Below, in pieces: positions 31,372 through 36,878 of a stretch of 39,374 bases of DNA; the stretch's first letter is position 1; the number at the start of each line of letters is the position of its first letter. The DNA lies in the IMG/VR virus record IMGVR_UViG_3300029009_000036, positions 1 to 39,374 of that record. One strand, 5' to 3'. A program made the position numbers and the translations under genes. Under the pieces are notes generated by a model. That model was given only the letters and a program-made list of their open reading frames with translations. It searched no databases and was not told the DNA's origin. This stretch comes from a virus. Taxonomy: Duplodnaviria > Heunggongvirae > Uroviricota > Caudoviricetes.

Positions 31372-31604
31372 GCTGCACCTCCGAGATGCTTCATGTTTTT
31401 TCCGGAGCGAAAGGCTATAAGCGGCATACTGACGCGGTAATTACGGCCCAGCGGTTCACAAATCACCTTCTGGCATTCACGGTCAACCAGGCTAACACGT
31501 AGAACATGCCCTGCAGGCGTGGTGTACCACTGCCCAACTGTAGGAATTGATGTTTTTTTACGCTGAAGCAAACGGCAAATATTGAGGATCAACGGATTAA
31601 GCAT
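31368..31604 (-). CDS. Small hypothetical early protein
   Basis: 78 aa, ATG at 31604, 4-nt overlaps with both neighbours. Confidence 0.4.
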   Translation of the reverse strand: MLNPLILNICRLLQRKKTSIPTVGQWYTTPAGHVLRVSLVDRECQKVICEPLGRNYRVSMPLIAFRSGKNMKHLGGAA

Positions 31605-32433
31605 GACGATGCCCTCCGCTGATATTCAGGAGACGGTGAATATGAAAATTAGCCTTATCCGCCAAACGAATACGTTCAGCCTGCAATTTAAGAAGTGTTT
31701 CTACCAGAACCTGATGCGCCTGCGGATCCGAAAGAGTTACCTTGCGCAGAGCACGTAGTGCAGTTGTTACATAACTGAGTTTATGTAAGTCTTCATCATT
31801 CAGACGAGCGAGGGTTGGGAGAGTAGTCATGGTGACAGCCCCTATGTTGAATTCAAAGAACTCACCACATGGGACGCCAATCACAGAGGTGGTGAGACGT
31901 ACAGGGTTGGCGTAACCGGTCAACATAGAACCCGGCGCATCTTGCGATGCCCCTGCACGCCCCACCATAATTTGGACGTAGCAATGCTCATGATACGAAA
32001 AAACCGCATGAGCGCGGTTATGCTCTATATTGAATTCCAGGACGCCAATCCCGACACCCGCTTTATAAGGTGCCTGAACAGTGTAACGTCCCGGAATGGC
32101 AGAATCAATGTGCTGGTGGTCCTTCACACTCAACAAAATCACGCCTGAATTTCCACAAAGGACTAAAGCACTCATGCGGGTAGTCTTTGCGAAGATAGAT
32201 AACGCGCTGTGTTTCTGGCTCCCAACGAATAACATGAACATAAAGTCCTCTTCCGTCACGAAACCAGCGGTTAAGTTCCTGCACAACTCGCCCCCCACAG
32301 TCAGGTAAAGTTCTCTGTGGTTACTTACAGCCAGGTGATTTGGTAATCTGCATTCATGCCGTAACAACAGGTGTTCAGCGACGCTGACCACCAGCTGTTG
32401 CGACAAACGGTTATTTGCCGTTAAACTGTTCAT
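31597..32433 (-). CDS. Hypothetical early protein
   Basis: 278 aa, ATG at 32433; no domain recognised by eye. Confidence 0.5.
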   Translation of the reverse strand: MNSLTANNRLSQQLVVSVAEHLLLRHECRLPNHLAVSNHRELYLTVGGELCRNLTAGFVTEEDFMFMLFVGSQKHSALSIFAKTTRMSALVLCGNSGVILLSVKDHQHIDSAIPGRYTVQAPYKAGVGIGVLEFNIEHNRAHAVFSYHEHCYVQIMVGRAGASQDAPGSMLTGYANPVRLTTSVIGVPCGEFFEFNIGAVTMTTLPTLARLNDEDLHKLSYVTTALRALRKVTLSDPQAHQVLVETLLKLQAERIRLADKANFHIHRLLNISGGHRHA

Positions 32434-33225: not shown

Positions 33226-33231
33226 ACAATA

Positions 33232-33315: not shown

Positions 33316-33990
33316 ATGAAAACAGTCCATGACATCCGGCGGTCTAACGCCAGAAAACTGAGAGATGGTGTTGGCGGGAATTCTTCCTTTGCCACCATGA
33401 TTGATCGCGAGCCAACCCAGACCAGCAGGTTTATGGGAGATGGTGCTACTAAAAATATCGGTGACAGCATGGCACGGCACATCGAAAAATGTTTCGACCT
33501 GCCTGTCGGATGGCTTGATCAAGAACACCAGACAACAAACATCACAAAAAAACCTGATGTTTCAATTACTAACAAACAAATAACGTTAGTCCCTGTCATA
33601 TCATGGGTACAGGCCGGAGCATGGAAAGAAGTTGGCTATTCTGAGGTTGATTTGAGCACAGCAGAAACTTATCCCTGCCCTGTACCCTGTGGCGAAATGA
33701 CTTATATCTTGCGGGTGATTGGTGATTCAATGATTGATGAGTACCGCCCGGGAGACATGATTTTTGTTGATCCCGAAGTCCCTGCCTGCCACGGTGACGA
33801 CGTTATTGCATTGATGCACGATACAGGCGAAACCACCTTCAAGCGATTGATAGAAGATGGAACACAGCGTTATCTCAAAGCATTAAACCCAAACTGGCCT
33901 GAGCCTTACATTAAGATTAACGGTAATTGCTCTATAATTGGTACAGTAATTTTCTCAGGAAAACCAAGAAGATACCAAATAAAGGCCTAA
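33316..33990 (+). CDS. CI-like repressor (HTH plus S24 LexA-type autopeptidase domain)
   Basis: 224 aa, ATG at 33316; C-terminal ...LRVIGDSMIDEYRPGDMIFVDPE... has GDSM Ser nucleophile context typical of S24 peptidases. Confidence 0.85.
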   Translation: MKTVHDIRRSNARKLRDGVGGNSSFATMIDREPTQTSRFMGDGATKNIGDSMARHIEKCFDLPVGWLDQEHQTTNITKKPDVSITNKQITLVPVISWVQAGAWKEVGYSEVDLSTAETYPCPVPCGEMTYILRVIGDSMIDEYRPGDMIFVDPEVPACHGDDVIALMHDTGETTFKRLIEDGTQRYLKALNPNWPEPYIKINGNCSIIGTVIFSGKPRRYQIKA

Positions 33991-34001
33991 TCAATATTTA
34001 T

Positions 34002-34026
34002 AACCTGCTTCGGCAGGTTTTTTTAT
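34002..34026 (+). terminator. Intrinsic terminator after cI
   Basis: aacctgc-ttcg-gcaggtt followed by ttttttt. Confidence 0.7.
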
Positions 34027-34028
34027 AC

Positions 34029-34056
34029 TTGACAATGTACCCTTGAGATACATAAT
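34029..34056 (+). promoter_or_regulatory. pL-like early-left promoter with embedded operator site 3 (34036-34052)
   Basis: TTGACA (34029-34034), 16-bp spacer, CATAAT (34051-34056); tgtacccttgagataca fills the spacer. Confidence 0.55.
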
Positions 34057-34474
34057 GTATCTAAAAGAAACATGCCACAGGCAAGATTAAACAAAATTTG
34101 GTTGTAACACGGCGTATGGCACATGCGTCGTTAGCGGTCTGGGGACGTTAAAGGGGACAATCCACTCCTTGCTCGGGCAAACAAACCAGGTAGCCGGAAT
34201 GTGCAAGTCAATGAGGATGCTGATAAGACGCCTAACCAGCGTGGCGATTCGGTTTGACGCCTGGGAAGAGACCAGGGTGCAACGATGAGGGCATTTATGG
34301 AACCGCGACAAAGTGTGGTGCCGTAACTGGCTAAGTGCTCTCAGCGTTGTGGTAATCCGCGAAATGGCGCGGCGGTAAGTATGGCGGGGTTACTCTTTCC
34401 CCGTTGAGGACACCGGATTGTCAGGTTGACCATACACCTGAGTGACAACCCCACCACAACAGCCACTGCTTTGG

Positions 34475-34520
34475 CGGTACCAGTTTGTACACTTGCTTCC
34501 GGCTGGTACCGCTCTTTTTA
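34475..34520 (+). terminator. Terminator-like hairpin inside the early-left leader
   Basis: Perfect 10-bp stem gcggtaccag / ctggtaccgc (34475-34484 / 34503-34512), 18-nt loop, followed by tcttttta. Confidence 0.5.
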
Positions 34521-34654
34521 CAAAACAGAGAAGAGCATCACCGGACGACGGGCTCATAACCCAATCCATCCGGGCGGCTGCACCGCAGGTGTTCTTCTCT
34601 GTTTTGTGGAGAAACCAACCGACCTTGCAGGGTCGATATGATGAGGAGCAGCAA

Positions 34655-35017
34655 ATGGCTAGCGAACGCAGTACTGATGTGCAGGCATTTATCGGGGAGC
34701 TGGACGGCGGCGTATTTGAAACCAAAATCGGCGCAGTTCTCAGTGAAGTCGCTTCCGGTGTGATGAACACGAAAACCAAAGGTAAGGTCTCGCTCAACCT
34801 GGAAATCGAACCGTTTGATGAGAACCGTGTGAAAATCAAACACAAACTCTCATATGTTCGCCCGACTAACCGCGGGGAAATTTCCGAAGAAGACACCACC
34901 GAAACGCCGATGTATGTCAATCGCGGTGGTCGCCTGACTATTCTGCAGGAAGACCAGGGACAATTACTGACTCTTGCCGGTGAGCCTGACGGAAAACTCC
35001 GCGCAGCAGGTCATTAA
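34655..35017 (+). CDS. Hypothetical early-left protein (YfdP-like)
   Basis: 120 aa, ATG at 34655 with GAGGAG RBS; ORF-track N-terminal extension lacks a start signal. Confidence 0.65.
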   Translation: MASERSTDVQAFIGELDGGVFETKIGAVLSEVASGVMNTKTKGKVSLNLEIEPFDENRVKIKHKLSYVRPTNRGEISEEDTTETPMYVNRGGRLTILQEDQGQLLTLAGEPDGKLRAAGH

Positions 35018-35082: not shown

Positions 35083-35907
35083 ATGTCTCAGAACTTAGAC
35101 GCAACCGCAATTAATCAAATCCATGCCCTTATTTCTGCTCAGGGTGTTAATGAAATTATCAGTAAGATTGGTGCCGATGCTGTGGCATTGCCTGAGAATT
35201 TCCGCATTCATGATCTGGAAAAATTTAATTTAAATCGCTTCCGTTTCCGTGGTGCGCTTTCCACTGCCAGCATCGATGACTTTACCCGTTATTCTAAAGA
35301 TCTTGCAGATGAAGGCACCCGCTGCTTTATCGATGCCGATAATATGCGAGCAGTCAGTGTGCTTAACCTGGGTACTATTGATGAACCAGGTCACGCAGAT
35401 AACACCGCCACTCTCAAACTGAAAAAGACAGCACCGTTCTCTGCCCTGTTGTCTGTTAACGGCGAGCGTAACTCCCAGAAGTCACTGGCAGAATGGATTG
35501 AAGACTGGGCCGACTACCTTGTGGGCTTTGATGCTAATGGTGACGCTATTCAGGCAACAAAAGCGGCTGCGGCGGTCCGTAAAATCACAATTGAAGCGAA
35601 CCAGACTGCTGATTTTGAAGACAATGACTTCAGCGGCAAACGCTCCCTGATGGAGTCTGTCGAAGCGAAGACCAAAGACATTATGCCAGTGGCATTTGAA
35701 TTTAAATGCGTTCCGTTTGAAGGCCTGAAAGAACGTCCATTTAAATTACGACTCAGCATTATCACTGGTGATCGCCCTGTACTGGTTCTGCGCATTATTC
35801 AGCTGGAAGCAGTGCAGGAAGAAATGGCTAACGAATTTCGTGATCTGCTTGTTGAAAAATTCAAAGACAGCAAAGTAGAAACCTTTATTGGTACTTTCAC
35901 CGCCTGA
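35083..35907 (+). CDS. DUF2303-family protein (YfdQ-like)
   Basis: 274 aa, ATG at 35083 with GTGAGGA RBS; size and sequence recall CPS-53 YfdQ. Confidence 0.75.
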
Positions 35908-36083
35908 TTTCATTACTGCAAATGCCCCTGCGGGGGCGTTTACGGAAGCGATAATTTTAACTATTGCCGCCCCTATAAAGAACCATTAAACGATAACGTG
36001 ACGTAGCTATTGATAGTAAATGAAGCACTTGCAAAATAATTGCATTGCGTATATATACGCACATGTGTTGTATTACAGCGATA

Positions 36084-36878
36084 ATGGTAAAGCAAATGAT
36101 TAACTCTGAAGCAATTGAGCAACTAATGTGGTTATGGTCCTTATTTGACATTAAATTCTTATCTATTTTTGCCGCAGGCTTCACTATATATTTTGGCGTA
36201 CAAAAAATATCAAAAAAGGTGACAGTATCGTATTCAGCAAATGTAAGTAAAATATATGACATGCATATATCAACCATAATCCTGACTAATAAAAGAGATA
36301 ATGCAATTGCTATATCTTCAATCAATATGGAGGTTGAAGGGAAAGGGATACTACAAGTTATTAAATTTGACTCCCCTCTTCTTCTAAAGAACTATGATTC
36401 TTTAAAAGTTGAACTACCAAAATTTAGCAGCCTTTATAATAATGATGGCATAGTTAAGTTAGATATTTCTGATAAGTTTCATTTTTATATAATCACGACA
36501 TCTGGAGATGAAATCAAATGTATTTCTGAAAATAAACACGTGGCACCAAATATGAAAAACAAAATAATTCCAGACATAATAAAATTTAATGGCATTGTCT
36601 TAACAAACAGAATGTCTTATATTTTTTTCTATGCAAATGACAACGGAGAGAAATACTGCATAATAGATGCTTCATTGTCCATAAATGGCGACAACCCATT
36701 TCATTTTCATGTTCTTAAAGAAGATAAATTAAGAGATTTTTCTAGCATCCTTATTGGTTACGGATATCACCAACGGTTTAAAAGTTATGCATTATTTAAA
36801 ATAGACAACCATCTTGCTCCTTCTTTGGTTTTAAATAAATCAATGATAGAAAATAATATTATTGAAATGAATAAGTAA
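36084..36878 (+). CDS. AT-rich cargo gene: membrane-anchored protein of unknown function
   Basis: Start uncertain (ATG 36063, 36084 or 36096; track start 36045 is TTG); N-terminal TM helix LMWLWSLFDIKFLSIFAAGFTIYFGV then ~230-aa Asn/Lys/Ile-rich soluble domain; candidate promoter TTGCAA-N17-TATATA just upstream (hexamer positions approximate). Confidence 0.6.
   Translation: MVKQMINSEAIEQLMWLWSLFDIKFLSIFAAGFTIYFGVQKISKKVTVSYSANVSKIYDMHISTIILTNKRDNAIAISSINMEVEGKGILQVIKFDSPLLLKNYDSLKVELPKFSSLYNNDGIVKLDISDKFHFYIITTSGDEIKCISENKHVAPNMKNKIIPDIIKFNGIVLTNRMSYIFFYANDNGEKYCIIDASLSINGDNPFHFHVLKEDKLRDFSSILIGYGYHQRFKSYALFKIDNHLAPSLVLNKSMIENNIIEMNK

Follow-up and report, generated by a model that had tools for sequence, protein, structure and literature searches.

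A chain of mobile RNA modules with a dicF-type 3' half in the early-left leader of a lambdoid prophage

The dicBF operon that the Qin prophage of Escherichia coli K-12 carries is the closest described relative of the locus that we report here. Its DicF RNA occurs as a species of 190 nucleotides (nt) and as a species of 53 nt; formation of the 5' end of the former needs RNase III, while the shorter form needs RNase E (Ragunathan et al., J Bacteriol 2023, PMC10448788). A terminated ydfABC-dicF transcript (1146 nt) and a read-through transcript (1608 nt) both exist (PMC10448788). Our study concerns a lambdoid prophage of 39,374 nt (IMG/VR virus record IMGVR_UViG_3300029009_000036; this whole stretch is "the window" in the following) and, within it, the leader that extends from the terminator of the repressor gene to a YfdP-like gene. 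This leader is neither a single leader nor a single non-coding RNA but a chain of separately mobile RNA modules, which follow each other (5' to 3') in the order X-core, P7/P6 helix, module C, DicF-like terminator hairpin and a long double-stranded RNA stem. Its 3' half is a new, divergent dicF-type locus. With a probability of roughly 60%, we read the leader as a dicF-type operon of non-coding RNAs that is expressed early under the control of the repressor, is built from mobile modules, gives rise to several RNAs, and feeds the downstream genes through leaky termination.

The leader in comparison with the dicBF locus of Qin

The promoter, the modules and their helices are located as follows.

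34029-34056 (+): pL-like sigma-70 promoter, TTGACA (34029-34034), 16-nt spacer, CATAAT (34051-34056); 11 of 12 consensus matches
34035-34054 (unstranded): operator copy ATGTACCCTTGAGATACATA within the promoter spacer; repeat family D1/D2
34090-34108 (+): conserved 5' flank (AACAAAATTTGGTTGTAACA region); homology begins at 34090
34109-34282 (+): X-core, pseudoknotted structured RNA (covariation, profile search)
34110-34118 / 34122-34130 (+): X-core P1 helix
34138-34142 / 34186-34190 (+): X-core P2 helix, enclosing a variable insert
34189-34207 (+): X-core invariant 19-mer GGTAGCCGGAATGTGCAAG
34228-34231 / 34239-34242 (+): X-core P4 helix
34234-34237 / 34251-34254 (+): X-core pseudoknot, P4 loop AACC with downstream GGTT
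34260-34264 / 34272-34276 (+): X-core P5 helix, loop GAAGAGA
34280-34349 (+): long helix, P7 CAAC 34280-34283 / GTTG 34346-34349 and P6 34284-34293 / 34336-34345, with a variable insert inside
34346-34460 (+): module C, 90.4% identity over 115 nt to K-12 Qin directly 5' of dicF
34346-34353 / 34453-34460 (+): module C closing stem
34357-34361 / 34368-34372 (+): module C hairpin
34379-34384 / 34430-34435 (+): module C pseudoknot, GTATGG with CCATAC
34385-34389 / 34399-34403 (+): module C hairpin
34418-34425 / 34437-34448 (+): module C hairpin
34470-34519 (+): DicF-like terminal hairpin and T-run (fold, K-12 alignment, sub-threshold match to RF00039)
34515-34612 (+): branched hairpin closed by a perfect 25-base-pair (bp) stem (34515-34539 / 34588-34612); -50 kcal/mol, z = -6.5

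The 3' 175 nt of the cassette are homologous to the ydfC-dicF region of Qin. Both loci form part of a repressor-controlled early-left operon of a lambdoid element, and both present a P7/P6-type helix, module C, a hairpin of the form TTTGGCGGTAYCAGTTT...CCGCYCTTTTT and a long stem before the next gene in this order, the stem behind the terminator having 13 bp in Qin and 25 bp in the window. They differ in that the window lacks ydfABC, so that its cassette stands directly behind pL with X-core in first position, in that a yfdP-like gene takes the place of dicB downstream, and in that both the loop and the 5' seed of DicF are missing.

The hairpin of the window (TTTGGCGGTACCAGTTT...CTGGTACCGCTCTTTTT / CCGCTCTTTTT) can be aligned with K-12 dicF (TTTGGCGGTATCAGTTT...CCGCCCTTTTT), and the GC-rich terminal hairpin of the DicF type, with its 5' arm UUUGGCGGUAUCAG and its U-tract, is present. 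Its stem (34473-34485 / 34501-34513; -21.2 kcal/mol, z = -5.4) is followed by TTTTT at 34515-34519; a previous reading of the same DNA, referred to here as the original prediction, had correctly seen a hairpin with a U-tract at this site, but the stem has 13 bp rather than the 10 bp given there. Hairpin and T-run together constitute a predicted intrinsic terminator, which a consensus terminator scan missed because the loop exceeds 8 nt. The match to the DicF model RF00039 covers model positions 12-52 only, that is, the hairpin part. DicF was the only plausible Rfam match to 34470-34514 in a narrow search, wider Rfam searches were without a DicF hit, and K-12 dicF, used as a control, scored 76.7 bits on RF00039.

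The 5' arm of the 25-bp stem begins in the T-run of the terminator, and the structure precedes the yfdP-like gene. It is conserved, with compensatory changes in the divergent copies L094 and L122, and its distribution follows the cassette and not yfdP. The terminator hairpin and the 25-bp stem are both far more stable than shuffled controls. Judged from its length, the stem is a likely candidate for an RNase III site on read-through transcripts.

The RNase III site of Qin was placed by counting 190 nt back from its terminator, which leads to GGTTGTGGC, the 3' strand of a helix formed by CCAUAAC..GAAAGCGCAUGG with ACCGUGCGCUUC..GGUUGUGG. This helix is the Qin version of P7/P6. Since the count ends in the helix, the "long DicF" of Qin should correspond to module C plus DicF, with P7/P6 at the presumed RNase III site, and homology to Qin would place an RNase III cut near position 34345 of the window. 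P7/P6 and module C consequently offer a structural rationale for the 190-nt species, and the region 5' of K-12 dicF turns out to consist of conserved RNA modules that are shuffled by phages together with tRNAs.

In the window, the P6 strands are GATGAGGGCA and TGCTCTCAGC. Across 22 distinct flank pairs of P7/P6, 91.9% of the cells pair, and five pairs show double changes; additional sequence versions of the helix were present in copies outside the first, pattern-based set. Module C homologues lie between ydfC and dicB in PPompW, vB_EcoS-640R1 and an Actinobacillus phage, the position that dicF has in K-12 Qin, and the annotated "dicF-like region" of phage P1, just after the ban promoter, is likewise a module C homologue. 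The module C region of K-12 had no Rfam match at E <= 1. The likeness of module C to tRNA is limited to its acceptor-like closing stem (TGTGGTA...CACCACA-A-CAG), while true tRNAs fill the same slot elsewhere. We downgraded the view that module C carries a tRNA-like processing signal for RNase P, because RNase III makes the corresponding 5' end in Qin.

X-core and the modular make-up of the leader

The leader is 97-99% identical in the phages cdtI, Ayreon and 2H10 and in twelve Stx2c-converting phages. From 34090 on, shortly after the promoter, the sequence is also homologous to P1 and to phages with different immunity regions. Individual blocks of the leader occur on their own: P1 and the epsilon15-like phages have 34096-34352, the block 34346-34468 is present in PPompW and Tritos and even in an Actinobacillus phage, and 34452-34655 occurs in phages without the remaining leader. 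The module borders GCGTTGTGG and CCACCACAAC recur at recombination joints between different cassettes. Behind P7/P6 lies a slot that starts within GTTGTGG; it is filled by module C in the window, and by three kinds of occupants in other phages, namely a true tRNA-Arg, an insertion-bearing tRNA (L094), or "framed" modules, whose acceptor-like stem of 7 bp has ACCA at its end (TGTGGTG...CACCACA-A-CCA). X is absent from the sister phage mEp460_4F5, although this phage shares with the window the module frame, the terminator, the stem and the genes yfdP and yfdQ. The original prediction had considered a discrete non-coding RNA of about 450 nt; a primary transcript of this size is plausible, but its template is a chain of separately mobile modules and not one RNA.

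Compensatory substitutions mark X-core as a structured and probably functional RNA. We examined 27 pairs in five helices over 26 sequences less than 95% identical to each other, with slid partners and 500 shuffles as controls. In X-core, 96.7% of the cells pair, versus 30-51% with slid partners, and double changes affect 11 pairs and 61 cells, a level reached by none of the 500 shuffles. The pseudoknot co-varies between AACC/GGTT and CACC/GGTG in at least two independent lineages, the Kosakonia copy being the second independent AACC/GGTT variant. Because X-core has invariant U-G and G-U pairs, the + strand is the one that folds. The helices are separated by invariant segments, foremost the 19-mer GGTAGCCGGAATGTGCAAG. 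Of the 14 copies that were retrieved with another anchor, 13 have this 19-mer unaltered; the sole variant, L139, carries a G to T change. The check that the original prediction had proposed, structure and covariation across relatives, thus turned out in favor of an RNA: X-core and P7/P6 pairs alike show compensatory changes beyond the controls, and the leader is both conserved and structured in its relatives.

Searched with megablast, 1376 of 5426 complete E. coli genomes (about 25%) contain X, 256 of the places being on plasmids of P1 size, and none of the copies is annotated. A large, strongly conserved and pseudoknotted RNA has hence been left unmarked by annotation pipelines in a quarter of these genomes. 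Among the carriers are cdt- and Stx2c-converting phages, the O104:H4 outbreak strain C227-11, P1, and epsilon15-like phages of Salmonella, Klebsiella and Enterobacter; Enterobacterales species representatives carry X-core as well. For a scan of contigs, a 17-nt degenerate anchor was too loose, since most of its 120 matches were random and 14 Enterobacterales loci were real. A scan of IMG/VR with the 19-mer yielded 120 loci; of 127 copies, 28 have tRNA-Arg directly 3', 17 have the CAU tRNA directly 5', and 82 are without a tRNA. X-core follows pL-type promoters of several immunity types. The copy of P1 belongs to the ban operon, which is under C1 control, and has tRNA-Ile2 (trnI) on one side and ban on the other. 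In epsilon15-like phages X-core stands immediately upstream of tRNA-Arg(UCU); this tRNA adjoins the 3' end of X-core in phiV10-like phages, SPN1S, Tyrion and a Klebsiella phage. The idea that the P5 loop GAAGAGA might act as a specifier codon toward the anticodon of tRNA-Arg was rejected, as only 3-4 nt can pair and the same loop occurs beside tRNA-Ile or in copies without a tRNA. A conserved protein partner was rejected as well, because the downstream genes vary with the context (Phage_gp49_66 versus YfdP-like).

The Rfam searches, which the original prediction had likewise proposed, were run at gathering and at permissive thresholds and yielded C4 and isrK in the window, both on the pR side; a cmscan of 33900-34800 against Rfam 15 (E <= 10) gave no credible match over X-core or module C, leaving the sub-threshold DicF match at 34470-34514 as the only one in the leader. 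Literature searches for a described RNA at this position and searches with sequence strings returned none, and X-core is not among the entries in the table of phage small RNAs of a 2025 review. X-core is accordingly without a described relative in Rfam 15, and the RNA class inside the cassette is possibly new. As covariation-supported structured RNAs of (pro)phages without a known function, GOLLD and ROOL resemble it. They often adjoin tRNA genes. X-core differs from these large RNAs by its much smaller size (about 175-245 nt), its restriction to Enterobacterales phages so far, and the lack of a match to their Rfam models. The C4 antisense RNA of P1/P7 (RF01695) is, like X-core, a small structured RNA from the immunity regions of the same phages. 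C4 is released from its precursor by RNase P, a tRNA-processing enzyme, and the framed modules that follow X have acceptor-like stems ending in ACCA. C4 differs, however, in sequence and fold, in its location on the pR side, and in having a known target (ant).

Several further observations concern the modules in other genomes. In K-12, a second framed module (GTGGTGAATGCGGCTGAGCGCA...GGAGGCACCAGGCAC) is situated between dicF and dicB (L253 1647-1787; NC_000913.3 ~1649446-1649586) within the 13-bp stem GAATTTTGTGATG/CATCACAAAATTC; it scores 34 bits against Rfam STnc100 (E = 1e-5), below the threshold of 47. A framed module of the same type replaces module C in mEp460_4F5 (L249 ~1690-1800). What stands between pL and the RNA cassette of this phage, instead of X-core, is an open reading frame (ORF) of 123 amino acids (L249 1234-1602), whose C-terminus resembles, by eye, a helix-turn-helix of the excisionase/AlpA type. 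In L094, the slot (1077-1203) is occupied by a tRNA-Thr(CGU)-like gene whose variable region is enlarged by an insertion of about 50 nt; the gene still reaches 43.9 bits on the Rfam tRNA model. The P6 inserts of some X copies (L006, SPN1S, ~1620-1720; L009; L100; L139) contain hairpins with the canonical T-loops GGTTCAATTCC and GGTTCGATTCC and look as if they were captured fragments of tRNA genes. P1 has a P7/P6-type helix, CAACAGGTAAGGGCGCT...AGCGTCCTTTCCTGTTG, between its module C homologue and tRNA-Asn (L002 560-680); as this helix stands far from the X-core copy, the X modules appear to be split up within the ban operon. Finally, epsilon15-like cassettes have a conserved hairpin, AATCACGCCTNAGGACCGTGAT (L003 2820-2841 and many IMG/VR loci), between the tRNA or framed module and the DicF-like terminator. 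The window lacks this hairpin; ARAGORN detected no tRNA or tmRNA in the window.

Proposed course of expression and its rivals

The promoter matches, in sequence and position, the TTGACA-N16-CATAAT element overlapping an operator copy that the original prediction had described. The operator repeat has four copies, the other three at 33231, 33264 and 33282 in the cI/cro intergenic region. Since the spacer of the promoter holds an operator copy that is otherwise found between cI and cro, pL is in all likelihood under the control of the repressor. For the window phage, we infer the processing sites, the leaky termination and all functions as follows. Transcription from pL, with a predicted start near 34063, would produce X-core first, then P7/P6, module C, and the DicF-like hairpin with its T-run. 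By analogy with Qin, the DicF-like terminator would stop most transcripts, and the resulting primary RNA would measure about 455 nt. A cut by RNase III in P7/P6 would part X-core from an RNA of about 175 nt that comprises module C and the DicF-like hairpin and that may undergo further trimming. Some polymerases would read through the terminator, as is documented for Qin; on these transcripts RNase III may act at the stem 34515-34612 and thereby detach the RNA cassette from the yfdP/yfdQ mRNA. The picture that would emerge for the early-left operon of an N-less lambdoid phage is that of an RNA cassette in first place with a leaky terminator at its end.

The weakest step of this model is the role of X-core. 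X-core has invariant unpaired segments, lacks a fixed neighboring protein family, and occurs in early or tRNA-containing transcription units of lambdoid, P1-like and epsilon15-like phages, which are unrelated to each other. These features suggest a discrete RNA that uses the invariant segments to bind a conserved factor of the host or the phage. Only tentatively do we go further and propose a new functional RNA class of temperate enterobacterial phages, either a polymerase-modifying antiterminator unrelated to put, or a sponge or aptamer for a conserved host factor or small molecule in early lytic development, for instance in counter-defense.

A number of findings weigh against the model of a dicF-type RNA operon. 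The RF00039 match at 34470-34514 amounts to 11.8 bits (E = 1.9) and does not reach the threshold of 48 bits; the single-stranded 5' seed of DicF, UUCUGGUGAC (model positions 1-11), is absent, with CCACTGC in its stead; and complementarity to the ribosome-binding site of ftsZ gave no support, the loop of the window reaching -11.6 kcal/mol (p = 0.79), compared with -20.9 kcal/mol for the loop of K-12 DicF (p = 0.02 against shuffles). These pairing values come from a test with short targets, the duplex with a long target having been uninformative. Given the sub-threshold score, the missing seed and the lack of an anti-ftsZ loop, the DicF-like hairpin may be a terminator only; as its loop differs from that of DicF, it probably does not target ftsZ. 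The fold of module C is consistent but with few independent compensatory events, and hence its covariation support is weaker than that for X-core and P7/P6. The minimum free energy of single X-core sequences is not unusual (z = -1.2 to -1.9), a weak signal that we did not use as evidence, and the start site near 34063 is a predicted position. X-core usually lies within about 100 nt of an early promoter, which would fit a cis role in transcription or RNA stability as well. Moreover, CRISPR interference with trnI and ban of P1 caused no plaque or plating defect (PMC10695390), so that any role of X-core should be accessory or dispensable in the laboratory.

The rival that survives best, although we regard it as unlikely, makes X-core a cis-acting, put-like processive antiterminator that would, as nascent RNA, attach to the polymerase transcribing it and bring the enzyme through the DicF-like terminator, so that early-left expression has no need for N. 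The original prediction had pointed in this direction by comparing the position with nutL/N of lambda and put of HK022, and it was right that no N-like protein is encoded, the first gene after pL being YfdP-like. X-core is the first element past pL-type promoters in many immunity types, a strong terminator separates it from every early-left gene, and epsilon15-like cassettes likewise have terminators downstream of X. As in HK022, a non-coding RNA lies just past pL and ahead of terminators in a lambdoid phage without N. However, the size of X-core is about 2.5-fold that of put, X-core is pseudoknotted, and it is found in P1 and in epsilon15-like phages beside tRNAs, too. Comparison of the region 18-34 kb of HK022 by blastn and with the X profile gave chance-level matches only, and the profile search detected one copy in the 39-kb window (34109-34282) and none on the pR side. 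The leader of lambda has in common with our locus a pL-proximal untranslated region in which a long stem of the RNase III type precedes the first gene; it differs by its boxA and its N gene, since no boxA was found in our leader at up to three mismatches and counts over the whole window were at chance. The boxB loop of lambda nutL is GAAGA. The P5 loop GAAGAGA of X-core resembles it, but has 7 nt and is conserved in non-lambdoid phages. The sister phage mEp460_4F5 keeps the terminator, the hairpin and yfdP/yfdQ without X, the X-core of P1 stands in the middle of an operon directly before ban with no terminator between them, and Qin, which lacks X, nevertheless expresses dicB from behind the homologous terminator (PMC10448788). 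Antitermination of the put or nut type is thus not borne out by our analysis.

Rather improbable, too, is that X-core is a cis-acting platform for processing or stability, which would shield the transcript from 5'-end-dependent decay and aid the correct folding and processing of the tRNA, module C or DicF-like RNAs downstream, with no function of its own in trans. The linkage of X-core to other structured RNAs or tRNAs, with which it would always be co-transcribed under this proposal, fits, as does the position of P7, directly next to nucleotide 1 of tRNA-Arg or of framed modules with an acceptor-like stem. Yet X-core also stands directly before protein genes without an RNA partner (L066, P1 ban), and a protective fold has no need of invariant unpaired segments such as the 19-mer.

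We consider it very unlikely that X-core is a ligand or temperature switch in which the P1 hairpin competes with a long-range helix of GCACAU (34119-34124) and AUGUGC (34199-34204) to control downstream termination or processing. RNAalifold does propose this alternative helix, both of whose strands are invariant, and pair 8-16 of the P1 helix is broken in copies like that of phage P1 while U16 is still fixed. Pseudoknot-rich cores with invariant joining regions are also typical of aptamers. Because the two strands never vary, however, covariation cannot be scored for the alternative helix; the only natural variant of the 19-mer (L139) is uncompensated, and a common expression platform is lacking because the downstream content differs between contexts.

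That the region acts as DNA, as a recombination linker or single-strand origin, or encodes small proteins is most improbable: the borders that recur at recombination joints and the short "hypothetical proteins" in some database records would suit it, but compensatory changes together with strand-specific G-U pairs indicate that a transcript of the + strand folds, promoter and terminator bracket the region, and the annotated ORFs are broken or frame-shifted in relatives and gave no match to a protein family. The data on coding are as follows. As the original prediction had it, about 590 nt precede ATG 34655 with no ORF that starts with ATG and exceeds 29 codons on the + strand (the longest at 34199). 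When GTG and TTG starts are allowed, leader ORFs extend to 71 codons (+) and 74 codons (-), which is within chance, since the longest ORF in composition-matched shuffles of the leader measures 82 +/- 24 codons. Pfam gave no match to the leader ORFs, and no reading frame is kept across 26 homologues: the 19-mer is read in each of the three frames among them, and the lengths of their indels are not divisible by three; we consequently rejected a coding reading of the leader.

Flanking genes and additional loci in the window

Two features flank the leader elements listed above.

34002-34026 (+): intrinsic terminator of the cI-like repressor gene, AACCTGCTTCGGCAGGTT and T-run, just 5' of the promoter (terminator scan)
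34620-34657 (+): small hairpin 34620-34635, Shine-Dalgarno sequence GAGGAG 34643-34648, and ATG 34655 of the YfdP-like first early-left gene

The assignment of the first early-left gene to ATG 34655 in the original prediction therefore holds. Upstream of the leader, positions 33316-33990 (+) encode a cI-type repressor of the S24 peptidase family, and the minus strand carries the leftward genes for Cro-like and CII-like proteins and for replication. The YfdP-like gene (phrog_204, 34655-35017) is followed on the + strand by a DUF2303/YfdQ-like gene (35083-35907) and then by the excisionase gene. The leader had also been described as GC-rich, which is true to a modest extent only: its GC content is 52.9% (X, 55.2%), compared with a window average of 50.6% and with 45-46% in the flanking genes.

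On the - strand, Rfam identifies the C4 antisense RNA (31885-31972, 80 bits) and the isrK RNA (31997-32073, 60 bits), both inside an ORF of 278 amino acids (31597-32433) that resembles "transcriptional regulator" PHROGs. This locus looks like an antirepressor control module of the P1/Gifsy type within a lambdoid prophage. Between the YfdQ-like gene and the excisionase gene, an AT-rich ORF of 277 amino acids (36045-36878, +; phrog_14996, unknown function) has the appearance of a moron insertion.

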